From: Candidatus Aminicenantes bacterium
Lineage (GTDB): Bacteria > Acidobacteriota > Aminicenantia > Aminicenantales > JAFGAV01
Length of the DNA stretch: 64,000 bases
Assembly: GCA_963705895.1 (NCBI GenBank)
Contig: OY970122.1
Location: 2,914,774 to 2,978,773, forward strand
Reading direction: 5' to 3'
The notes below the pieces were generated by a model that did no database searches, had not been told where the DNA came from, and saw only the letters and a program-made list of their open reading frames with translations. Shown piece after piece: positions 4,219 through 40,394 of the stretch (within the stretch, counting starts at the first letter, position 1; every line of letters begins with the position of its first letter). The position numbers were made by a program, and so were the translations under genes.

Positions 4219-4991
4219 CCGAAGAGTCGTTCCGGGCCAGCACTCAAAAGAAGCTTCTGGACAAGAACGTCTCGCTCCTGTCCAAGTATTCTCTCCTTTT
4301 CCTGGGACGAAAGAGCCGCCTGGGGCTCCTGAAGTTCGAGCTCATCAACCTTTTCGTGTCCTGGGTGCCCGGCGCACTAGGGCTGGTCCTGCGCCGAATC
4401 TTTTATCCGAGTCTCCTGGGCCGCGTCGGCCGGGACGTCGTCTTCGGTCAGAACATCACCCTCAGACATCCGCACAAGATCCGGATCGGGGACCAGACCG
4501 TGATCGACGACTACGCCGTCCTGGATGCCAAGGGCGATTCGAACGAGGGCATCAGCATCGGCCGGAACGCCTACATTGGCCGAAACACCACCCTGAGCTG
4601 TAAGGAAGGGTCCATCCGCCTTGATGATTACTGCAATGTCTCGGCCAACTGCATGATCCTGTCCGAGACCGAGGTCAGCCTGGGCAAGCATTGCTTCCTG
4701 GCCGGGAACTGCTACCTCGTGGCCGGCGGGAACCATAGCTTCGACGAGCCCGACGTGCCGATCATGTTCCAGCCCTCCTTTTCCAAGGGCGGGATCAAGA
4801 TCGACGACGATTGCTGGCTGGGCGCCGGGGTGGCCGTCCTCGACGGCGTGACGATCGGCAAGGGGAGCGTCGTGGGCGCGGGTTCGGTCGTGACCAAGCC
4901 CCTGCCCGAGTATTCGATCGCCGTGGGGAGCCCCGCCCGCAGGATCCGGGACCGCCGTAACGAAAAGGATCCGAACCGGGTCCGCCCCTAG
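4215..4991 (+). CDS. Left-handed beta-helix (hexapeptide-repeat) acetyltransferase, WcaF/WbbJ-like
   Basis: Repeated [LIV]G-x-x-x-x hexapeptides (IGDQTVIDDYAVLDA, IGRNAYIGRNTTL, CWLGAGVAVLDGVTIGKGSVVGAGSVV) and an N-terminal hydrophobic segment. ATGA overlap with the GT-C stop. Confidence 0.85.
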   Translation: MTEESFRASTQKKLLDKNVSLLSKYSLLFLGRKSRLGLLKFELINLFVSWVPGALGLVLRRIFYPSLLGRVGRDVVFGQNITLRHPHKIRIGDQTVIDDYAVLDAKGDSNEGISIGRNAYIGRNTTLSCKEGSIRLDDYCNVSANCMILSETEVSLGKHCFLAGNCYLVAGGNHSFDEPDVPIMFQPSFSKGGIKIDDDCWLGAGVAVLDGVTIGKGSVVGAGSVVTKPLPEYSIAVGSPARRIRDRRNEKDPNRVRP

Positions 4992-6223
4992 TCCGTCGTC
5001 TTCCGCATTCTCTGTTCCGAAGCCTGGATAACGACCGCTCCGGCCATGCTGCCGATGATGTTGGCCGTCGTTCGGCACATGTCGAGGAGCCGGTCGATGC
5101 CGAGAATGAGGGCGATCCCCTCGAGCGGAATGCCGACCTGCTTCATGATCAGGGCCAGAGTAACGATGGCCGCGGACGGCACGCCGGCCGCGCCGATGGT
5201 GGCCAGGGTGGTCATGACCAGGATGACGGCCTGATCGCCCAGGCTCAGGGGGATGCCGAAGATTTGGGCGATGAACACCGCCGCCACTCCCTGGTAGAGG
5301 GCTGTCCCCGCCTTGATCGTCGTCCCCAGGGGAAGGACGAAGCTCGAATACTCGCGGGTCACGCCCAGGCCCTCCACGCGCTCCATGGCCACGGGCAGCG
5401 TAGCGCTCGAGCTCGAAGTGCTGAAGGCGATGAGGATCGCGTCCTTGGTCGCGCGAAAAAAGCGACGGGGATCGACCTTGGCCAGGACGATGAGGATGAG
5501 GCTCGTGAGGACGACGGCGTACAGGACAAGCCCGGCCAAGACGACGAGAGCGTACCGCAGCAAGCTGAGGAGGACCGACGCTCCGAACTGCCCGATGGCC
5601 GAGGCCACCAAAGCCAGGACGCCGAGCGGGGCGATGGACATGACGATGTGAATCACGCGGAGGATGACGTCGTTCGCTCCCTCGAGGAGGCGAAGCACGG
5701 GCCCGGCCCGCTCAGGGGGGATGAGTGCCAGGGCCACGCCGAAGATCAGGGCCAGAAAAATGACCTGGAGCATGTCGCCCTCGGCCAGGGCCTTGAAGGG
5801 ATTGGCCGGAACGATGTTGACCAGAATGTCGGTCGCCTTGGGTTTGGCTTCCAGGTTCCGCAGCCGGTCCTGGGCGCCGGCCTCGTAGTCTTTGAGAAGC
5901 TCCTGCTTGACGCCGGGGCTGACGCTCCGGCCCGGCTTGAGCAGGTTGACGAGTGCCAGACCCAGAGCGATGGCCGCGACCGTTGTCATCACGAAATAAA
6001 GGATGGTCTTGAGACCGATGCGCCCCAGCTTGCGGACATCGCCCAGGCCGGCCGTGCCCAGCATCAAGGAGATCAGCACCAGGGGGACGACGATCATCAG
6101 GATGAGTCTCAGGAAGATCGTGCCCACGGGCTCGACGAACCGGGCCTTTGGGCCGAGGACAAGGCCGAGAAGGATTCCCAGGGCCAGGGCGATTAGGATC
6201 TGCGTGTGGAGCTTGACCTTCAT
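4988..6223 (-). CDS. Dicarboxylate/amino acid:cation symporter (DAACS, GltP/DctA family)
   Basis: 411-aa polytopic protein with DAACS-typical hairpin motifs (SSSATLP, AGVPSAAIVT). Confidence 0.9.
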   Translation of the reverse strand: MKVKLHTQILIALALGILLGLVLGPKARFVEPVGTIFLRLILMIVVPLVLISLMLGTAGLGDVRKLGRIGLKTILYFVMTTVAAIALGLALVNLLKPGRSVSPGVKQELLKDYEAGAQDRLRNLEAKPKATDILVNIVPANPFKALAEGDMLQVIFLALIFGVALALIPPERAGPVLRLLEGANDVILRVIHIVMSIAPLGVLALVASAIGQFGASVLLSLLRYALVVLAGLVLYAVVLTSLILIVLAKVDPRRFFRATKDAILIAFSTSSSSATLPVAMERVEGLGVTREYSSFVLPLGTTIKAGTALYQGVAAVFIAQIFGIPLSLGDQAVILVMTTLATIGAAGVPSAAIVTLALIMKQVGIPLEGIALILGIDRLLDMCRTTANIIGSMAGAVVIQASEQRMRKTTD

Positions 6224-6232
6224 CGGCGGCTC

Positions 6233-7201
6233 CTAGAGCCAGCCCTTGTCCCTGTACCAAGCGACCGTCTGGGCCATGCCCTGGGCGAAGTCGACCCGAG
6301 GAGAATAGCCGAGCTCCCGGACGGCCTTGCGGATGTCCATGGGTTTGGAGCGGATGAAAAAGGCCAGGCGCGAAGGGGTGAGCGGAGCTTCTTTCTTGAA
6401 GAGGCGGAAGGTCTTGTCCAGGATCGAAGCGGCGGCCGCGGCCGGACCGAGGGGGAGTCGGAGGCGCGGAGGCTTCACGCCCGCGGCTTCGGCGATCAAT
6501 CGAATCATGTCTTTTATGGCCAGGATCTCCGGCCCGGCCAGGTTGTAGACCTCGGCCCTGCGTCCTTTTTCGAGACAGCGCAGGGTTCCCTTGATCAGGT
6601 CGTCGATGTAAACCGGCGACTGGAGGGCGTCGCCCTGTGAGACCATGAGGATCCTTTTGCGGGCCACGGCGCGGATGAGCTTGAGGGTGCGTCTGTCGCC
6701 CGGGCCGTAGACCCAGCCGGGCCGGATGATCCTTACGTCGAGCCCCCGGCGGCCGAAATCCAGGGCGATTCGTTCCCCCTCGAGCTTGCTCCGGTCATAG
6801 GCGTCAAGGGGATGGGGAGGATAGGATTCGTTCACGGGGCGCATCCCGGGCACGTGGCCCAGGACCCCGGCCGAGCTGAAATGAATGACGGTCCGCACCC
6901 GGGCCTCCGAGGCCGCTTTCAGGACGGATTGCGTCCCGCCGGCGTTCGTCGCCTGGAATTCTCCGTTGGAGATGAGCGACGAGCCGAGGGCCGAGGCCAG
7001 GTGGAAGACGACGTCGGTTTTTTTCAAAGATTTCTGAAGACCGGCCCGATCGGACAGGTCCCCGCTCACGGCTTCGAGCCCCGGGGCCGGGGGCAGCGGA
7101 TGCTTGTGGATGATGACCCGGACTTCCCAGCCCCGGCGCAGGAGTTCGTTCAGAAGGTGCGTCCCGATAAAGCCCGAGGCGCCGGTGATGAAAGCGCGCA
7201 T
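6233..7201 (-). CDS. NAD-dependent epimerase/dehydratase (extended SDR)
   Basis: N-terminal GASGFIG Rossmann motif; about 320 aa. Confidence 0.9.
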   Translation of the reverse strand: MRAFITGASGFIGTHLLNELLRRGWEVRVIIHKHPLPPAPGLEAVSGDLSDRAGLQKSLKKTDVVFHLASALGSSLISNGEFQATNAGGTQSVLKAASEARVRTVIHFSSAGVLGHVPGMRPVNESYPPHPLDAYDRSKLEGERIALDFGRRGLDVRIIRPGWVYGPGDRRTLKLIRAVARKRILMVSQGDALQSPVYIDDLIKGTLRCLEKGRRAEVYNLAGPEILAIKDMIRLIAEAAGVKPPRLRLPLGPAAAAASILDKTFRLFKKEAPLTPSRLAFFIRSKPMDIRKAVRELGYSPRVDFAQGMAQTVAWYRDKGWL

Positions 7202-7212
7202 GCAATCCCTCC

Positions 7213-8388
7213 CTAGCGGAACCGATCGTCTTTTCTTGGGACGGCCTTGGCCAGCGCTTCGCCGATCTTGGCCAGATAAGCGGAGTCGGTGTACTCTTTA
7301 TCAGCCTTGGCCTTGGCGGCCTTGGCCTTCTTCTGCGCCCCCCGTTCGAACAGGGCGAAAGACAATCCCTCGGCCATGCTTTCGGCCGTGGGTTCGACGA
7401 GAACGGCGATCTCCTCGTTCACGACCTGGGTGTGAGTCCAGAGGTTCGTGGCCACGAGAGGCTTGCCCGACCTCAGGAAGGAATAGATCTTGAGGGGCGT
7501 GTTCGTCCCGGACAGGCGGGGCGAGACGAGAACGTCCGCCGCGGCGATGTAGAGCGGAACGATGTCCGGGGCGACCCGGCTGACGAAAACCACCCGGCCG
7601 GCGATGCCCAGGGCCTCGCACTGCCGCCGAAGGTCTTTTTCATCGGTCTCCGTCACTCCCACGAGAGCCAGGACGGCTTTGCCCTTCACCCGGGCCAGGC
7701 CTTCGAGGAGAAGCGATATTCCCTGATAGGGCTGGAAGTTGCCTGCGTACAGAACAATCTTCTCGCCGCGCGGGGCAAGCGCCTTGCGGATGCCGTCGAC
7801 GTCCCGGGCCCCTCCTGCGGGAGGTTCGAAATCCAGGAAATTCTCAAGAAACACGGCTTTGCTTCCGAAGCCTTTGGCCTGGACGAGGCGCTCGAGGTCG
7901 CGGCAGATGACGATGACCGAACCCGAACGCCGCAGGACGAAATCCTCTATGAGGATAAAAAGGCCCCTGAGGATCGCCGATCGCGAGAAGTTGAAGTTGT
8001 CGAGTTGTTGGGGCAGGCTGGAATGCATGTCATAGAGATGGGGTATGCGCCAAAGCCTGCCCAGGACCGTGCCCAGGAAACCCGCTTCCTCATGGGAAAA
8101 GATGAGGTCATAGCGATCCCTGAGAAGCTCGCGGCCGGCCTTCAAAAAGAGGAGGATATCCAGGGGCAGTTTCATGAGCGATGGCCCGATCTTGATCGCT
8201 CTTACTCCCGGCGGCCGAGGGATCCGGGCGATGCGCAACCCGGGGAAGCTCCGGTCCTCACCGAGCGGATACGTGACGAGAGTCACGCGGTGTCCAAGCT
8301 CGGACAGGGCTTTGAGGCGAAAATAGATGCTGATGGGCGTGCCCCGGGGCTGGAAAAACGGCTCCGGAGCCAGCATCAGGATGTTCAT
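7213..8388 (-). CDS. GT4 family glycosyltransferase
   Basis: GT-B fold with N-terminal MNILMLAPEPFF...RGTP and a C-terminal E-x7-E region. 4-bp overlap with the upstream GT2. Confidence 0.85.
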   Translation of the reverse strand: MNILMLAPEPFFQPRGTPISIYFRLKALSELGHRVTLVTYPLGEDRSFPGLRIARIPRPPGVRAIKIGPSLMKLPLDILLFLKAGRELLRDRYDLIFSHEEAGFLGTVLGRLWRIPHLYDMHSSLPQQLDNFNFSRSAILRGLFILIEDFVLRRSGSVIVICRDLERLVQAKGFGSKAVFLENFLDFEPPAGGARDVDGIRKALAPRGEKIVLYAGNFQPYQGISLLLEGLARVKGKAVLALVGVTETDEKDLRRQCEALGIAGRVVFVSRVAPDIVPLYIAAADVLVSPRLSGTNTPLKIYSFLRSGKPLVATNLWTHTQVVNEEIAVLVEPTAESMAEGLSFALFERGAQKKAKAAKAKADKEYTDSAYLAKIGEALAKAVPRKDDRFR

Positions 8389-32481: not shown

Positions 32482-33762
32482 CTATTTCAGGTAGCCGAGG
32501 CTCTTCAGCCGTTTGATGATCGCTTGGTCAAAATGTGTTTCGATCGGCTTGTCCGAGGAGTCCTTCCTCGGACCGTAGGAGGCGATCGTTTGGATCCGGT
32601 GGGCCGCAACGAACTTGGGAGTCATGGCCTCCAGGCACACCCGGCCGTCCATATCCTCGGCCACGGGCAGGCCCACGAGGTAAAGCAGCGTGGGGCAAAT
32701 GTCGACCAAGGCGACGGGTTTCTCGAGCCGGACGCCGCGCTTGATCCCCTGGCCGGAGATGATGAACACTCCGTTCTTCGTGTGTTCGCCCCTCATCAGG
32801 CCATGGTCGGAGGAGATGATGATGGTCGTATCGGCGCCGGCCGCATCCAGGAAAGGCTTGATCATCTCGTCCATGGCCAGGTAGTAGTTCCTCTGGACGT
32901 CTCCCGCTACGGCTATGACGGCCAGCCTTTTTTTGGATTTCTTGCCCGTAAAGCGATGGCCGACGACATCGACGCCGCTCAAGTAGATAGCGAAAACCCG
33001 GGGCTTTTGGGATCGGTAAAGGCGAATTCCGATCTCGCTGTAGATCGCATCCGTCATAAAAGCCCAATCCGTCTGGGTGACGACAGGCGGAACCTTGGTG
33101 AACTTCGATTGGGGGATTATCTTTTCGGAACTTTGTCGATACTTTTTTTCTCCCTCCAGGCTCGCCTTCTTGGTCTCGTCTTCGAGCGAGGGCGGATAGA
33201 CCATCTGCGGAACATCGCTGTAGAACGACCCCTTCCAGATCGGCTGGAGACCCGGGCCCCGGACGCCCAAATAGGAGGAGACCATGAATCCCTTGACCGC
33301 TTCCACGGGCCAGGTGATGTACCATCCCACGATTCCCACGGAGATGTCCTTCTCGGAGAGGATGTTCCAGAAGGCCTTGGTCCTGCGGCGGTTGCTCGTG
33401 TTGGGGATCATCTTTTGGGTCTGGGGCTCGATGATGACGAAGCCGTTGATCCCGTGCTTTGACGAGAACTGGCCCGTGGCCACGTCGGTCCAATAGAGCG
33501 CGCTTCCCTTCCCCCATTCATTGGTCTCGATCTTGGCCGAGCAGGCGCCCTTGATCAGCCGGTCGAAGTTGGGCAGAAGGCCCTGCCCTCTAAGGGTGTC
33601 GACCAACTCCCAGTCGAGGCCGTCGATGCCGATGTACAAGATCCTGCGCTGCCCTCCGACCCGGCAGGATACCGCCAGGAAGGCGAGACATATCAGACCG
33701 ATAAAAAAAACCAGGATTCTTTTGCTCGACATCGCCCCTCCTTTATTCGATCCGCGCTTCAT
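32482..33762 (-). CDS. Alkaline-phosphatase-superfamily enzyme, type I phosphodiesterase/nucleotide pyrophosphatase (NPP)-like, secreted
   Basis: ILYIGIDGLDWE metal-binding start and TGQFSSKHGI, which resembles the NPP TG..P..HGI motif. Signal peptide. Start could be 33732. Confidence 0.85.
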   Translation of the reverse strand: MKRGSNKGGAMSSKRILVFFIGLICLAFLAVSCRVGGQRRILYIGIDGLDWELVDTLRGQGLLPNFDRLIKGACSAKIETNEWGKGSALYWTDVATGQFSSKHGINGFVIIEPQTQKMIPNTSNRRRTKAFWNILSEKDISVGIVGWYITWPVEAVKGFMVSSYLGVRGPGLQPIWKGSFYSDVPQMVYPPSLEDETKKASLEGEKKYRQSSEKIIPQSKFTKVPPVVTQTDWAFMTDAIYSEIGIRLYRSQKPRVFAIYLSGVDVVGHRFTGKKSKKRLAVIAVAGDVQRNYYLAMDEMIKPFLDAAGADTTIIISSDHGLMRGEHTKNGVFIISGQGIKRGVRLEKPVALVDICPTLLYLVGLPVAEDMDGRVCLEAMTPKFVAAHRIQTIASYGPRKDSSDKPIETHFDQAIIKRLKSLGYLK

Positions 33763-33837: not shown

Positions 33838-35118
33838 TTATTTCAGGTAGCCGAGGGTCTTCAGCCTTTTGATAATGGACTCATCGAAATTCGTCTCGAT
33901 CGGCTTGTCTGACGAGTCCCTCCTCGGGCCGTAGGAGGCGATCGTTTGGATCCGGTGGGCCGCGACGTGCTCGGGAGTCATGGCCTCCAGGCATACCCGG
34001 CCGTCCATGTCCTCGGCCACGGGCAGGCCCATGAGGTAAAGCATCGTGGGGCAAATGTCGATCAAGGCGACGGGTTTCTCGAGCCGGACGCCGCGCTTGA
34101 CCCCCGGCCCGGACAGGACGAAAACGCCGTTCTTCTGGTGCTTGCCCCTCATCAGGCCGTGGTCGGAGACGAGAAAAACAAAGGTCTTATCATCGATGGA
34201 GGAGACGATAGGCGCGATCATCTCATCCATGGCCAGGTAGCAGTTCTTCTGCACGTCGGCGAATTTCCCGGGAGCCTTGGCCTTCCGCTTGCGGTTCTTA
34301 TGGGTGAACATATGCCCGACCGTATCGATGCTGCCCAAGTAGACGGCGAAGACCTCCGGTTTCATCTTCTCGTAGAGGTGCCGTCCGACCTCGAGATAAA
34401 TAGAGTCGGACATGATGGCCCACTCCGCCTTGGTGACGGTCGGCTGGCTTGTCGTCGGAGCCTCGAGGGGGATGATCTTGCGAATCCTCTGTTGGTACTG
34501 GGTTTCTCCCTTATGCACGTAGTCCTTAGTTTCGTCGGCAAGGGCTCGGGGGTAGATCATGTCCGGCTCTTGGGCATAATACATGCCCCTGATCGTGGGC
34601 TGGACATCTTTATAGGTAAAGTAGGAGGACACCATGAACCCCCTGACGTTCTCCACCGGCCAGGTGATATACCAGCCTACCACGCCCACCGAGACCCCCT
34701 TCTCCGAAAAGATATTCCAAAAGGCCTTGGTTTTCCTGCGGTTGCTCGTGTTGGGGGTCATCTTCCCGGTCTGGGGGTCTGTATAAACGAAGTCGTTGAT
34801 CCCGTGCTTTTTGGAGAACTGGCCGGTGGCGATGTCGGTCCAGTACAGAGCGCTTCCCGCTCCCCATTCATTGGTTTCGATCTTGGCCGAGCAGCCTGTC
34901 TTGATCAGGCGGTCGATGTTGGGCAGCAGGCCCTGATCGCGCAGGGTGTCGATCATCTCCCAATCGAGGGCGTCGATCCCGAGGAAAAGGATCTTGTTGG
35001 GAGTTCCCGGATGACAGGATAAAGAGACGCCCGCGAGCAAAGCCAGAGCGAAACCGGCGACCTTGCCGACGAACGAACGAAGGATCATCCGTTCCGAACC
35101 TTTGAATTCCAGCTTCAT
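33838..35118 (-). CDS. Second NPP-like alkaline-phosphatase-family paralog (tandem), secreted
   Basis: ILFLGIDALDWE...TGQFSKKHGI. The last approx. 90 codons are nearly identical at DNA level to the downstream paralog. Start MKLEFK at 35118. Confidence 0.85.
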   Translation of the reverse strand: MKLEFKGSERMILRSFVGKVAGFALALLAGVSLSCHPGTPNKILFLGIDALDWEMIDTLRDQGLLPNIDRLIKTGCSAKIETNEWGAGSALYWTDIATGQFSKKHGINDFVYTDPQTGKMTPNTSNRRKTKAFWNIFSEKGVSVGVVGWYITWPVENVRGFMVSSYFTYKDVQPTIRGMYYAQEPDMIYPRALADETKDYVHKGETQYQQRIRKIIPLEAPTTSQPTVTKAEWAIMSDSIYLEVGRHLYEKMKPEVFAVYLGSIDTVGHMFTHKNRKRKAKAPGKFADVQKNCYLAMDEMIAPIVSSIDDKTFVFLVSDHGLMRGKHQKNGVFVLSGPGVKRGVRLEKPVALIDICPTMLYLMGLPVAEDMDGRVCLEAMTPEHVAAHRIQTIASYGPRRDSSDKPIETNFDESIIKRLKTLGYLK

Positions 35119-35176
35119 AGTTCCATCCAATCTACTTGCCGTGATTCCAGATGTCAAGCGCGAAAGAGCTCCGAGC

Positions 35177-36022
35177 CTAGTACAAGACGCGGTCTTCGCC
35201 CCGGGCCGTGACGAGGGACTCGATCCCCCGGAGCAGCAGGTCCCGCCGCACGAGCAGCTCATCGATCTCGGAGCTGGTCAGATAATCCTCCACGGCCGCC
35301 CGAATGCCGGCGTGGGTCAAAGCCCGCATCCCTGCGACGAATCGGCGCGGGAGCCGGCCGATTCCGGGAGTGCCGAGGTCATCGCCCACGGGATAGAGGA
35401 GTCGGCCGGTGTAAGGCGGCAGGTCGCGGAAGGACTGGCTGTGATCGATGAGAACCAGGCGCCAGTCTTCTGTGTAACGCATGTTTTGAAGCGTCCGGTC
35501 GGAATTGGCGATGAGACTGTCGAACGCTCTCTGCAACGAACGGGCCTTGTCGCGCGCGTCCTGGATGCCGGCCGGCGGGACGATATTCTCCTTGGCGAGC
35601 TTGAGCTCGCTGTAGGACAGGTCCACCCAGAGCTGGAGCGATCCCGCGTAGCCGTGGTAGGAGCGCTCGACGACGGGGGGGACCATGTTGAGCCCCAGGA
35701 TCCTATCCAGGCGATAGGCGGCGATCTCATGCTCCCATTTATCAAAACGGCCGGACCCGGCCGCGGACGGCCGCTTCCAAAGGCCGAACGCTTCGACTTG
35801 GCCCTTTTTTAGGCGCAGTCTCTTGGGATGGGTCACACCCTCCCCGACGTTCTCGGCGTCGATGATCTTGGCCTCTTTCAGGAACTTTTCCCAAAACGGC
35901 CGGCGGGCGATATCATCGTCGGTCAATTGAGCTCGACTCCAAAGGCCGAGACCGAGAACCAGGGATGCCGCGAGGAGGCCTAGGACCATCCGTCTCCTCC
36001 GCCGGGCAAGATCGGGTTTCAT
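35177..36022 (-). CDS. Secreted FAM20/four-jointed-like secretory-pathway kinase homolog (DUF1193-like)
   Basis: Signal/Tat-like N-terminus MKPDLARRRRRMVLGLLAASLVLGLGLWS. EIAAYRLDRILGLNMVPPVVERS recalls the FAM20 motif FHLDRILGFRRVPPVVGR. FDSLIANSDRTLQNM...LVLIDHSQSF recalls FDFLIGNMDRHHYE...HLDNGRGF. Confidence 0.7.
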   Translation of the reverse strand: MKPDLARRRRRMVLGLLAASLVLGLGLWSRAQLTDDDIARRPFWEKFLKEAKIIDAENVGEGVTHPKRLRLKKGQVEAFGLWKRPSAAGSGRFDKWEHEIAAYRLDRILGLNMVPPVVERSYHGYAGSLQLWVDLSYSELKLAKENIVPPAGIQDARDKARSLQRAFDSLIANSDRTLQNMRYTEDWRLVLIDHSQSFRDLPPYTGRLLYPVGDDLGTPGIGRLPRRFVAGMRALTHAGIRAAVEDYLTSSEIDELLVRRDLLLRGIESLVTARGEDRVLY

Positions 36023-36675
36023 TTTCGAGTCAATCGCTCGAGAAGCACACGGCTGTTTTCCTCAATGCAGAGCCATTCCGCTTCGGTCAGCCCGGCCCCC
36101 AGGCCGACGCTCTTCCATCCGTCGGGGAAGAGAAGATCCTCGCCGGAATGGGCGTCGCTGTTGACGACCAAGGGAATCCCAAACTCATGTGCCTTGCGTG
36201 CCACGTGGCCGTTGGTCAGGCAATGGCCCTTCCGCGCCGAGAGCTCAAAAAAGATCCCCTTTTTCCCGGCCAGACGGCAGTCCTCGTCCGAGACAAGGCC
36301 GGGATGCGCCAAGATATCCGCTCCCCCTTCGATCGCGGCCCGGTTGGTGCCGGGCCGGACCGGCTCGACGACGGTTTCCCCGTGCACGATGACCGGCCGC
36401 GCCCCCGCTCTGCGGGCGAGGTCGATGAGCTCGGGGATGAGCTCGGGCGGGACATGGGTGATCTCGACCCCGGACAAAAGGATGAGGCCGCTTATCGCGT
36501 TGAGTCGGCGGCAAACGCGGCCCGTTTCCTCGATGAGCCGCTCGATGTTCGAGAAATCCGCGTGGTCGGTGAGTCCCAGGGCCCGGTAACCGCGGACCTC
36601 CGCCTGACGCGCCGCTTCGGCGGGGAGCAAGAGCCCGTCGCTCGAAAACGTGTGGGAATGAAAATCGATGACCAA
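36019..36675 (-). CDS. PHP-family metal-dependent phosphoesterase (YcdX-like)
   Basis: PHP motifs IDFHSHT, LTDHAD, GVEITH, AHPG, NSDAHS. ATGA overlap with the kinase-like gene. Confidence 0.85.
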   Translation of the reverse strand: MVIDFHSHTFSSDGLLLPAEAARQAEVRGYRALGLTDHADFSNIERLIEETGRVCRRLNAISGLILLSGVEITHVPPELIPELIDLARRAGARPVIVHGETVVEPVRPGTNRAAIEGGADILAHPGLVSDEDCRLAGKKGIFFELSARKGHCLTNGHVARKAHEFGIPLVVNSDAHSGEDLLFPDGWKSVGLGAGLTEAEWLCIEENSRVLLERLTRK

Positions 36676-36738
36676 GGATTCACCCTCCTCTCCTCTGTGC
36701 GAATTCTAGCATGGTCCTGCCCGGGGGTCAAAAATCGC

Positions 36739-36960: not shown

Positions 36961-38100
36961 TCAGTGCCTGCCCGCCAATCGGGCAGTGAACCAGGCCCAC
37001 AACTTCTTGTGGAATTCGAGGCTCGGCGGATGGGCTTCCAAAAAACCTTTCCAGGTCAAGGGCGAGGTTTCCTGGGGAGAAAGGCGATAGGGACGGGACG
37101 CATCCCAGAGGTTCATGTTCTCGGGATGGAACTGGACGGCCAGGACGTTCGGGAATCGGTCGTGGCTCATGGCCTCAACGATCTTGCCGTCGAGCGAGGT
37201 GGCCTCGACCCGAAGGTTCTTGCCCAGCTTGGCCACGGCCTGATGATGGGAGCTCAGGACATATGGCTGGGCGTCGGGGGCCAGCCCCAGCTCCCGGGCG
37301 AGCTTGCCCTTGTCCAGCGGAGCTATCGGATGAAGCGTCCCGGCCGGAAGATCGGACGTCGGATAGAGCTTCGCGTAGGGGTTATCGTGCCAGTCGGGCA
37401 GCCCCAGAAGAAGGATATCCTCGATGAACATCTTGCCGTAGACCTCGTTCCAGATGTCCTGGATGAGCGTCCCGCCCGCGGCCACGTTCAGGCTTTGGGC
37501 GCCCAGGCAGATGGCCAGGATGGGATAGTCGGGCCGCGAGCCGAGGAGGGGCTCGAATTTCTCATCCTGGTAACCGCCCAGCAGTTGATAGAGGACGGAC
37601 AGCTCGAATTCGTGGCGGGCCGGGTCTACGATCGTCGTCAGGAGGCTTGTTGGGCTCCCGTACATCTCGGGGGGAATATCCGGACCGCCGGTGAAGATCA
37701 TCCCGTCCGATGCCCGGAAGATCCGCTCTATCTCCGGGCTGAGGACGTTCGCCCGAAAGACATCCTTGGTCTCGAGAGAGGCCGGGATCTCATGGAACTT
37801 GAACCAATCCAGGTGCTCGTCCCGGACCAAGGCTTTGGCCGCCTCGATATCGAAGGATTCCTTTTGATGGTAGACGCCGATGACCGTCAGGTCCGCGAGG
37901 TCGATGAGCTTCTCCGCGCGGAGGGCCGCGATATCCCTGACTCGATTCGCTGTCGGATGAAAAACGACCAGCCGCACGCCGCTGTGTTCGGGTCCGACCG
38001 TATCGAAGAACCTGTTCTCGGATCGTGCGGCGGAAGCGGCCGATAGGACCGGAACCGCCGCGGCCAGGATGAGGATCGCCGCGAGGAGTCTCTTGGTCAT
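36961..38100 (-). CDS. Secreted class-I glutamine-amidotransferase-like / peptidase C26 (gamma-glutamyl hydrolase family) protein with N-terminal extension
   Basis: ILAICLGAQSLNVAAGGTL (Cys nucleophile), SSHHQAV, VQFHPE. Signal peptide. Confidence 0.8.
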   Translation of the reverse strand: MTKRLLAAILILAAAVPVLSAASAARSENRFFDTVGPEHSGVRLVVFHPTANRVRDIAALRAEKLIDLADLTVIGVYHQKESFDIEAAKALVRDEHLDWFKFHEIPASLETKDVFRANVLSPEIERIFRASDGMIFTGGPDIPPEMYGSPTSLLTTIVDPARHEFELSVLYQLLGGYQDEKFEPLLGSRPDYPILAICLGAQSLNVAAGGTLIQDIWNEVYGKMFIEDILLLGLPDWHDNPYAKLYPTSDLPAGTLHPIAPLDKGKLARELGLAPDAQPYVLSSHHQAVAKLGKNLRVEATSLDGKIVEAMSHDRFPNVLAVQFHPENMNLWDASRPYRLSPQETSPLTWKGFLEAHPPSLEFHKKLWAWFTARLAGRH

Positions 38101-38929: not shown

Positions 38930-39089
38930 GGCGAACTCCTTGTCTTTTTTGGTCGAAGAGATGAAACCATTATAGAGCGCGTTCCGCGTCTAATCAATGT
39001 CAAGGGGGCCGGTTTTTTCCCCGGGCCCGTGGGAACGGGACTTCCCCCCGACGTTGACTTTCCTCATCCCCTCCGCTATAAGGAACTGG

Positions 39090-40394
39090 ATGAACAAGAA
39101 GATTCCGATCCTGATCATGGCCGTCCTTTCGCTCACGATCACGATGCGGGCCTCCGGTTCGGCGGCGTCTCAAGCCCTGGAGAAAAGGATTCCGGACATC
39201 GTCCGGAGCATCACCCCGTCGCTGATCGATGTTCGACGGGACATTCATGCCCATCCCGAGCTCTCGACCAAGGAAGTCCGCACCGCGGCCCTTGTTGCCG
39301 GCTATCTTGCCAAGCTGGGGCTCGAGGTCCGGACCGGGATCGGCGGAACGGGCGTGCTCGGCATTCTTCGAGGGGGGAAGCCCGGACCCGTGGTCGGCAT
39401 CCGGGCCGAAATGGACGCCCTGCCGATCACCGAGGAGACGAACCTCGACTTTGCCTCCCGGGTCAAGGACGAAGTCGACGGCCGGGCCTGCGGCGTCATG
39501 CATGCTTGCGGCCACGACATCCATACCACGGTCATGCTGGGGGTGGCCGAGGTCCTGTCCCGGCTGCGCCGAGACCTGCCGGGGACCGTGCTCTTCGTTG
39601 CGCAGCCGGACGAAGAGGTGAGCGACGGCGCCCAGCGGATGCTGAAGGATGGGGTCTTCAAAGACATCCGACCCGATGTTATGTTCGCCTTCCACGTCAA
39701 TGATGAGGTCAAGGCCGGGGTCATCACCTATGTGCCCGGATTTGCCACGGCCAACTGCGATGGGTTCCGGCTGACGATCAAGTCCGAGGGATGCCACGGT
39801 TCCGAACCCTTCCTGTGCGTGGACCCCATCATGGTCGGGGCCCAGGTCGTGATCGCCTTGCAGGGCATGATTGCGCGGGAGATCAACGTTTACGACAAGA
39901 CCGTCATCACCGTGGGTTCTTTCCATGCCGGGTCGGCCTCGAACATAATTCCCGATAAGGCCGTGCTCGATGCCACGGTCCGAAGCTACGGCGAAGAACA
40001 GAGGAAGGTCCTTAGGCAGAAGATCGAGCGGGTCATTGCCGGGATTTGCCAGGCGGCCCAAGCCGCCTATGACCTCGACTACCATTTTGGGACGGTATCG
40101 CTCTACAACGACCCGGCCCTCATGAAACGGATCCTGCCCACCGTGGCCCGCGTTCTCGGGGGAAATCAGTTCCTCAAAGAAGACCCGCCGGAGATGGGCG
40201 GCGAGGATTTCGGCTTCTTCGCCCAGGAAGTCCCCTCTGTCATGCTCCTTTTAGGGGCCGTGCCCAAGGACCTGGACAAGACCGCTGTGCATTCCCCGAC
40301 TTTTAGGGCCGACGAGGACAGCATCCCGCTGGGCGTGCGGGTCATGTCCTCGCTGGTTATCGACTACCTGTTCGATCCGCTCGTGAAAAAATAA
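39090..40394 (+). CDS. M20D family amidohydrolase (hippurate-hydrolase-like) with signal peptide
   Basis: MHACGHDIHT metal-binding motif. Start MNKKIPILIMAVLSL at 39090. Confidence 0.9.
   Translation: MNKKIPILIMAVLSLTITMRASGSAASQALEKRIPDIVRSITPSLIDVRRDIHAHPELSTKEVRTAALVAGYLAKLGLEVRTGIGGTGVLGILRGGKPGPVVGIRAEMDALPITEETNLDFASRVKDEVDGRACGVMHACGHDIHTTVMLGVAEVLSRLRRDLPGTVLFVAQPDEEVSDGAQRMLKDGVFKDIRPDVMFAFHVNDEVKAGVITYVPGFATANCDGFRLTIKSEGCHGSEPFLCVDPIMVGAQVVIALQGMIAREINVYDKTVITVGSFHAGSASNIIPDKAVLDATVRSYGEEQRKVLRQKIERVIAGICQAAQAAYDLDYHFGTVSLYNDPALMKRILPTVARVLGGNQFLKEDPPEMGGEDFGFFAQEVPSVMLLLGAVPKDLDKTAVHSPTFRADEDSIPLGVRVMSSLVIDYLFDPLVKK

Follow-up and report, generated by a model that had tools for sequence, protein, structure and literature searches.

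The DNA analysed here, referred to as the window, was a stretch of 64,000 nucleotides from a Candidatus Aminicenantes bacterium (assembly GCA_963705895.1, contig OY970122.1), and the subject of the analysis was a gene on its minus strand that encodes a predicted exported kinase related to the FAM20 kinases. The features of the gene and of its surroundings are listed in Table 1. A preliminary description had proposed that this gene encodes a bacterial, secreted homologue of the FAM20/four-jointed kinases. The open reading frame (ORF) of 281 amino acids (aa) exists, and every string quoted from it was found in its place: AFGLWKRP at residues 78-85, EIAAYRLDRILGLNMVPPVVERS in block 1 (residues 93-122), LIANSDRTLQNM at residues 170-181 and LVLIDHSQSFR at residues 189-199. 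The gene is certainly genuine, with abundant homologues and with motif residues that are invariant in an alignment of 34 sequences. Base composition was uniform with the flanks (guanine-cytosine (GC) content 0.56-0.64 across 30-41 kb), which speaks against a horizontal-transfer island, and a tblastn search for plasmid homologues of the kinase gave no match.

Table 1. Features of the kinase gene and its neighbourhood in the window
Feature	Position	Strand	Remarks
FAM20-like kinase gene	35177..36022	-	281 aa, ATG start; stop codon 35177-35179
Signal peptide MKPDLARRRRRMVLGLLAASLVLGLGLWSRA, residues 1-31	35930..36022	-	predicted signal peptidase I cleavage before Q32
Gly-rich-loop analogue NVGEGVTHP, residues 58-66	35825..35851	-	between predicted strands beta1/beta2; putative role
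K83, predicted ATP-binding (ion-pair) Lys, end of beta3	35774..35776	-	codon checked
Block 1, FDKWEHEIAAYRLDRILGLNMVPPVVERSY, residues 93-122, alphaC helix and beta4	35657..35746	-	HMMER alignments to FAM20A/B/C
Catalytic loop AFDSLIANSDRTLQNM, residues 166-181, with D175 and N180	35480..35527	-	aligned with FAM20 FDFLIGNMDRHHYE
DFG-equivalent LVLIDHSQSFR, residues 189-199, with D193	35426..35458	-	aligned with FAM20 IHLDNGRGF
C-terminal helical region, residues 226-281	35180..35347	-	ends in invariant L280-Y281; aligns with FAM20A/C C-terminal helices
PHP-family phosphoesterase gene, 218 aa, no signal peptide	36019..36675	-	Pfam PHP; NCBIfam PRK06361 274 vs cut-off 117 bits
Promoter-like site TTGACC-17-TAGAAT, with TG	36703..36731	-	ahead of the PHP-kinase pair; consensus scan only, no evidence of function
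Exported alkaline-phosphatase-superfamily protein, downstream	33838..35118	-	Pfam PF01663 Phosphodiest E=3e-24; likely start M49 of long ORF
Promoter-like site before first Phosphodiest gene	35157..35129	-	consensus scan
Second, paralogous exported Phosphodiest protein	32482..33762	-	PF01663 E=1e-22; two copies in L088 too
Peptidase_C26/GATase protein, signal peptide, upstream	36961..38100	-	
M20 peptidase, signal peptide	38997..40394	+	

A word-indexed search returned more than 1220 homologues at E<=1e-3, nearly all of about 273 aa, annotated "hypothetical protein" and from Candidatus Aminicenantes, while an exhaustive profile search gave 4739 clusters at 50% identity (E<=1e-3), 595 of them at E<=1e-30. 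Two sets were used for profiles, namely A1, an alignment of 34 homologues, and A2, which comprised 81 single-domain representatives with less than 50% mutual identity. Searched as a single sequence against the PDB sequences, the window kinase matched FAM20B marginally (E=0.037). The A1 profile matched FAM20A, B and C and the C. elegans FAM20 at 8e-7 to 1e-2 among all PDB sequences, with every other match at E>=0.4. The A2 profile matched FAM20A at E=1.6e-15, FAM20C at E=2.5e-11 and 1e-10, FAM20B at E=2.5e-11 and C. elegans FAM20 at E=4.4e-8, followed by PI4KIIα (E=2.4e-5) and PI4KIIβ (about 1e-4). Its alignment with FAM20 consisted of two stretches, from beta3 to beta4 and from the catalytic loop to the C-terminus, and took in the beta3 Lys, alphaC/beta4, the catalytic loop, the DFG-equivalent and the last residues of the C-terminal helices; with FAM20A it extended up to "...GQQSVIV" at the C-terminal end. 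By profile comparison, the FAM20 resemblance of the window kinase is far beyond chance. The homology to FAM20 proposed in the preliminary description was thus borne out, FAM20A/B/C being the best and at first the sole solved proteins matched by the family profiles, and the FAM20 motifs that it had named (AAFHLDRILDFRRVPP, NMDRHHYE and HLDNGRGF) are essentially those of the PDB alignments.

Curated models gave a more distant picture. Neither the window kinase nor any of the 81 single-domain members scanned matched a Pfam or NCBIfam model at its cut-off, the Pfam gathering scores being 26.8 bits for PF06702 (Fam20C), 25 bits for PF15051 (FAM198) and 27.1 bits for PF00454 (PI3_PI4_kinase). Below threshold, the window sequence matched FAM198 (E=0.0015, 17.9 bits) and HipA_2 (E=0.011) and had no Fam20C match, while Fam20C was matched by 8 of the 34 A1 and 12 of the 81 A2 relatives. 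Among the proteins tested, the Fam20C gathering score was reached by P0125 only (29.4 vs 26.8 bits), a protein of 671 aa in which a signal anchor precedes two kinase domains in tandem, both with His at the K83 column (AIFHDV). PI3_PI4_kinase was not matched by the window kinase and was matched below threshold by 13/34 and 49/81 relatives (best E 2e-7), with the DRxxxN spacing present and IDHS as the DFG-equivalent; weak matches to a Kdo kinase model were found in 17/81 members. The sole NCBIfam model matched by all 81 representatives was TIGR03843, the SCO1664 family (best E 6e-19, all below cut-off); the window kinase matched it with residues 97-264, which stretch from alphaC as far as the C-terminal helices (E=4e-8, 32.8 bits against an equivalog cut-off of 172.4 bits). 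On these scores the nearest curated bacterial model is this uncharacterised actinobacterial PI3/PI4-kinase-like family, a "hypothetical equivalog" without known function, and the match shows, at the level of sequence models, that the kinase clade already has bacterial members. The earlier statement that FAM20-like kinases are essentially eukaryotic needs nuance on this account, even though the TIGR03843 matches lie far below the cut-off.

In FAM20C the ion pair K285-E311, the FAM20-specific E306, the catalytic D458 and the metal-binding D478 have been assigned (PMC4421793). These residues were mapped onto the window kinase through the printed profile alignments and chain offsets, that is, by sequence alignment. 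K285 corresponds to K83 (profile "kavfK" against FAM20A "KAMFK"), E311 to E99, D458 to D175 and D478 to D193, while E306 corresponds to D94, five residues before E99, at a column that is D or E in 34/34 and 80/81 sequences and carries Asp in place of Glu in most family members. K83, E99, D175, N180 and D193 are invariant in all 34 sequences of A1, and all five are strictly invariant in the 30 closest singleton orthologues (30/30); R176, H194, S195, F198 and R199 are also invariant in A1. The AFGLWKRP segment does therefore contain the candidate ATP-binding Lys, as had been supposed. For the proposed catalytic loop and DFG-equivalent, the two Asp residues align with those of FAM20C, and the motif differs, being DRxxxN instead of DRHHYE. 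Between beta1 and beta2, the GEGVT loop (G62 invariant, T64 in 33/34) is a plausible Gly-rich-loop analogue judging by its position and conservation. The C-terminal L280-Y281 (35180-35185) was invariant in the close family, and the last residue was aromatic in most distant members. The window kinase has no cysteines, and its relatives have 0-5.

At the N-terminus of the window kinase, a basic n-region is followed by a hydrophobic core of 17 residues (hydropathy maximum 2.64 over 12 residues), and S-R-A precedes Q32. Among 124 relatives that keep Q32, position -1 was A, G or S in 110 and position -3 was L, A, S or V in 110. A cleaved Sec-type signal peptide is predicted as a family trait because the signal sequence itself is variable across the relatives while Q32 is invariant, with the (-3,-1) pattern before it. 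A hydrophobic N-terminal segment was present in 76/81 representatives, and signal peptides were found in every paralogue class. By the positive-inside rule, the domain would lie outside the cytoplasm even if the signal was not cleaved. The N-terminal signal noted in the preliminary description is therefore upheld as a Sec-type signal; its suggestion of twin-arginine translocation (Tat) export was dropped as a family feature, as RR occurs in only 21/124 relatives and never within the S/T-R-R-x-F-L-K consensus. The window n-region reads RRRRR followed by MVLGLL, without a Tat consensus, and most relatives have a short Lys-rich n-region. Q32 (35927-35929), the first residue after the predicted cleavage, is a possible pyroglutamate and is invariant across the close family.

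The AlphaFold2 model of the window kinase, built with A1, had a mean predicted local distance difference test (pLDDT) score of 91.5 and a predicted template modelling (pTM) score of 0.85, and its order of secondary-structure elements was that of a protein-kinase-like fold, with strands at 52-58 and 67-73 and helices at 226-279. The structural neighbours were led by FAM20C (5YH0, score 19.4), Hydra FAM20B (5XOM, 19.3) and C. elegans FAM20 (4KQA, 18.8), followed by PI4KIIα at ranks 4-5 (17.5 and 17.0), H. pylori CtkA at rank 6 (15.3), actin-fragmin kinase at rank 8 (12.9), HipA proteins at ranks 9-11 and 14 (10.9-12.7) and CotH at rank 12 (11.4). On Foldseek, the top TM-score was that of FAM20C (0.58-0.59), and VPS34 and PI4KIIβ had similar E-values. 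The structure prediction thus placed the fold closest to the FAM20 structures, as the preliminary description would have it. With the predicted model taken as given, no solved family comes nearer than FAM20 in either sequence or structure, and the margin over PI4KII is modest structurally and large in sequence.

The FAM20 secretory-pathway kinases (PF06702) comprise the Golgi casein kinase FAM20C, the xylosylkinase FAM20B and the pseudokinase FAM20A, and the Mn2+-dependent activity of the family is directed at secreted proteins (S-x-E) or at xylose. Compared with them, the window kinase has the same order and identity of active-site residues, including an acidic D94 for E306, a common alphaC-beta4 motif (E-I-A-A-[YF]-x-L-D-[RK]-[IL]-L-x(3,4)-V-P-P), common C-terminal helices and an N-terminal export signal, extracytosolic action being predicted for the window kinase. 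Its domain of about 250 residues is roughly 100-150 shorter than the FAM20 cores of about 350-400 (chains 351-418). FAM20 has conserved disulfides, and its core is enlarged by an N-terminal segment and by insertions. The window kinase lacks the N-terminal extension and the insertions, and it can form no disulfides because it has no cysteines. It also has IDHS where FAM20 has LDNG, and it lies below the Fam20C and FAM198 cut-offs. It is bacterial, whereas FAM20 is described as animal-specific or Metazoa-specific in a review (PMC7948968) and a kinome survey (PMC9758233). Because it stays below the Pfam threshold and is without the FAM20 disulfides and extensions, the window kinase is, as far as sequence can place it, a new bacterial variant that forms a sister family of FAM20 and not a FAM20 member. 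The other relatives are further away. PI4KIIα/β are eukaryotic, cytosolic, palmitoylated lipid kinases whose profile match falls short of that of FAM20 by about ten orders of magnitude in E-value and is limited to the region around the catalytic loop. CtkA (3AKJ) shares 12% identity with the window kinase and gave no profile match; its PDB title describes a host-directed proinflammatory factor, and it does not belong to any large environmental family. CotH kinases and HipA toxins (including HipA_2, PF20613) are much more distant in sequence and structure, and HipA proteins are cytoplasmic toxins with antitoxins, whereas no antitoxin was found at the window locus. A literature search found no paper on bacterial FAM20-like kinases, on SCO1664 function or on TIGR03843, in a coverage that mostly excluded subscription journals.

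The genomic context of the family was surveyed in 84 Aminicenantes loci, together with fusion-gene loci (L085-L087) and loci of window orthologues (L088-L090). The family occurs in the 84 loci in two forms, as a singleton (32 loci) or in a strongly conserved cluster, and at least five genome assemblies have both. The window kinase is closest to the singleton group, with up to 56% identity. The cluster has the order NTT/TLC(-), STAS(-), Metallophos(+), K1(+), NTT/TLC(+), SdiA-regulated/phytase-like beta-propeller(-), K2(+), K3(+), HATPase_c_2(-), often followed by Pkinase-TPR, where K1, K2 and K3 are three paralogues of the window kinase. It is located at L003 1-12585 (same contig as L028) and at about 50 further loci among L013-L082. 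Homologues of TLC-family (PF03219) ATP/ADP transporters were found in 39/84 loci, one of which was checked and exceeded the gathering score (E=1.8e-16), and the minus-strand NTT copy of L003 is an NTT-HEAT fusion. All catalytic residues are retained in K2, K3 and the singletons. In K1 (for example L003 4447-5247 and L032 5307-6119), the D175 column carries C or S and both R176 and N180 are gone, while D193 and mostly K83 are kept; because of the loss of the catalytic Asp, R176 and N180, K1 is predicted to be a pseudokinase, reminiscent of FAM20A beside FAM20C. A SpoIIE phosphatase also lies in L003. An identical kinase (P0113) and the same gene order were found in a "Candidatus Hydrothermarchaeota archaeon" metagenome-assembled genome (MAG) and in an Aminicenantia MAG of the same study (L004/L029 vs L003/L028), the Hydrothermarchaeota label probably reflecting an error in binning. 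The label "uncultured Eubacteriales" is carried by many related contigs that also look like Aminicenantes.

In 38 Aminicenantes loci, K1 is directly preceded by a Metallophos gene with a signal peptide, whose product matches 2Z72 and 1V73, cold-active protein-tyrosine phosphatases of Shewanella, at about 1e-33. More than 1600 signal-peptide-bearing proteins, annotated "metallophosphoesterase" only, join an N-terminal Metallophos domain to a C-terminal kinase domain; examples are P0174, P0180 and P0208, with the Shelph-type PPP phosphatase motifs GDxHG/GDxxDRG/GNHE. The named hosts of these fusions are Gammaproteobacteria (including Woeseiaceae and Xanthomonadales) and Acidobacteriota. Since the two domains are fused in some genomes and adjacent in others, which is classical evidence of a functional link, the arrangement favours a kinase/protein-phosphatase pair that acts outside the cytoplasm. 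In L087 (gammaproteobacterial, 4251-7836), DUF4956, an SdiA-regulated-type propeller (E=4e-9) and two unannotated genes adjoin the fusion, and in L086 (Woeseiaceae, 5121-7857) the adjoining genes are DUF4956, an unannotated 335-aa gene and a weak CotH-kinase gene (E=0.002). The propeller family is also that of the Aminicenantes cluster, so the association of propeller and kinase crosses phyla. No NTT/TLC gene was found in the three gammaproteobacterial loci examined or in the window.

Taken together, the window gene probably encodes a Sec-exported, catalytically competent atypical kinase, a minimal bacterial FAM20 homologue of about 250 residues without Cys. After cleavage before Q32, the mature domain would be periplasmic or exposed on the surface of the Aminicenantes (Acidobacteriota) cell. 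The nucleotide would be held between the GEGVT loop and K83, with K83 paired with E99, while D94 would help to hold the metal and the Lys like E306 in FAM20C. D193 would bind metal and D175 would act as catalytic base, so that an extracytoplasmic substrate would receive the gamma-phosphate on a hydroxyl group. This substrate would most likely be a protein, in a kinase/phosphatase cycle in the cell envelope; a protein is favoured because relatives of the kinase are fused or adjacent to the exported Shelph-type protein phosphatase. In the window lineage, the neighbouring exported Phosphodiest enzymes might have an opposing or related role. As to the source of ATP, the NTT/TLC genes of the paralogue cluster suggest ATP export that might supply the exported kinases. 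Of all this, the homology, the conserved active-site residues, the signal peptide and the gene fusions and neighbourhoods are shown by the sequences, whereas export, activity, the type of substrate and the origin of the ATP are inferred.

Several observations weigh against an exported, active protein kinase of FAM20 type. The catalytic motif DRTLQN of the window kinase follows the PI3K/PI4K pattern DRxxxN, with N180 at +5 from D175, and the K83 column is R, Q or H in some divergent members. No ATP supply is known in the bacterial periplasm. FAM20B phosphorylates a sugar and PI4KII a lipid, so that several of the close structural relatives are not protein kinases. The phosphatase link belongs to a paralogous subfamily (K1 and the fusions) and not to the window orthologue group, and in Aminicenantes the Metallophos-adjacent K1 is itself without the catalytic Asp. 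The neighbourhood of window-type singletons is not conserved beyond close relatives, no TLC, STAS, HATPase_c_2, SdiA-like or Metallophos homologue was found in the window, and the Phosphodiest adjacency may be plain synteny and is suggestive at most.

Of the alternatives, the one that survives best is that the window kinase is an exported glycan, lipid or small-molecule kinase acting on a sugar or a lipid head-group of the envelope, for example in lipopolysaccharide, exopolysaccharide or a glycolipid, as FAM20B acts on xylose and PI4KII on phosphatidylinositol. We regard this as possible and clearly less probable than a protein kinase. The DRxxxN motif, the PI3_PI4_kinase matches (the commonest sub-threshold Pfam match, 49/81) and the weak Kdo kinase matches in 17/81 members all point this way, and glycan kinase is regarded as the ancestral FAM20 activity (PMC7948968). 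However, the fusion or adjacency of a Shelph-type protein phosphatase is easier to reconcile with a protein substrate, protein kinases (FAM20C, CtkA, actin-fragmin kinase, HipA and CotH) make up most of the remaining structural neighbours, and no glycan- or lipid-biosynthesis genes were consistently near the kinase in the loci examined.

It is unlikely that the window protein performs no phosphotransfer in vivo and serves as a ligand- or nucleotide-binding scaffold, as a pseudokinase or in other nucleotide chemistry such as AMPylation. A periplasm with no known ATP supply would suit such a role, as would the R, Q or H at the K83 column of divergent members. Pseudokinase-like paralogues do arise in the family, as in K1, and FAM20A is itself a pseudokinase that activates FAM20C (PMC4421793). 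The five catalytic residues are nevertheless invariant in the 30 singleton orthologues and in A1, and this strict invariance within the subfamily of the window kinase itself is the pattern of an active enzyme, while the canonical set of kinase residues weighs against SelO-type flipped-nucleotide chemistry without excluding it. That the window protein is a secreted effector or toxin directed at other cells, inside them or from without, in the manner of H. pylori CtkA or HipA-type toxins, is very improbable. In none of the loci examined did the kinase adjoin a gene for immunity, for an antitoxin or for a secretion system, or a polymorphic-toxin architecture, the several paralogues of a genome share a stable chromosomal cluster with transporters and regulators, and the composition is uniform with the flanks, without plasmid homologues; no neighbours supporting a toxin/antitoxin or effector reading were found.

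A broader and rather doubtful extension of the exported-kinase interpretation is a dedicated extracytoplasmic phosphorylation system composed of exported FAM20-like kinases, a FAM20A-like pseudokinase, a Shelph-type phosphatase, an SdiA-regulated-type propeller and ATP-exporting NTT/TLC proteins (one of them NTT-HEAT), with the window gene as a stand-alone member and with animal FAM20 descended from such kinases. If it exists, its hosts would include Aminicenantes and probably, in part, Gammaproteobacteria and other Acidobacteriota. To our knowledge, extracellular phosphorylation in bacteria is almost unexplored. The family gives a concrete reason to ask whether periplasmic ATP-dependent phosphorylation occurs and how it is fuelled, and the phosphatase fusions and the clustering with ATP/ADP transporters make the question testable. 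According to PMC5381601, it is not known what NTT and NTT-HEAT proteins do in free-living bacteria, and the system, if real, would provide the function that was left open there. A large bacterial family that consistently carries signal peptides and has the whole FAM20 active site, the FAM20-specific acidic residue included, is also a candidate prokaryotic origin or sister group of the secretory-pathway kinases, and the window kinase offers a minimal Cys-free model of the FAM20 core, of 250 residues, that should express easily in E. coli. Since the family is annotated "hypothetical protein" or, for the fusions, "metallophosphoesterase" only, neither Pfam nor NCBIfam has a domain model for it.

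In the window, the PHP-family gene lies immediately upstream of the kinase gene. Its stop codon overlaps the kinase start (ATGA, 36019-36022), and because of this overlap the two genes are probably co-transcribed and translationally coupled; a 218-aa gene overlaps the kinase start in the orthologous locus L089 too. The PHP protein gave weak matches only with solved proteins. Downstream, each of the two Phosphodiest genes has its own promoter-like site in the consensus scan, and both products have N-terminal hydrophobic segments that end in Cys (…AVSC and …SLSC), so they may be lipoproteins. For the Phosphodiest neighbour, no solved relative was found at E<=1e-3 and no NCBIfam name was obtained. 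The kinase-Phosphodiest gene order was kept in the orthologous loci L088 and L089 (63-71% identity) and lost in L090 (54%), and because it is held in close orthologues only, it is not strong functional evidence. Homologues of the window Phosphodiest, C26 and M20 proteins were absent from all 84 other related loci, and PHP matched one locus. A peptide-degrading lifestyle has been proposed for Aminicenantes, and the flanking peptidases fit it; in L001 and L002 the kinase has large M14 peptidases nearby. The orthologue P0005 (69% identical) begins with MVIDFHSHTFFSDGL, which is the N-terminus of the window PHP protein (MVIDFHSHTFSSDGL) except for F in place of S, and this PHP N-terminus is joined directly to the kinase signal peptide, a junction that suggests either loss of the PHP gene by deletion or, in that genome, an artefact of assembly or gene calling.

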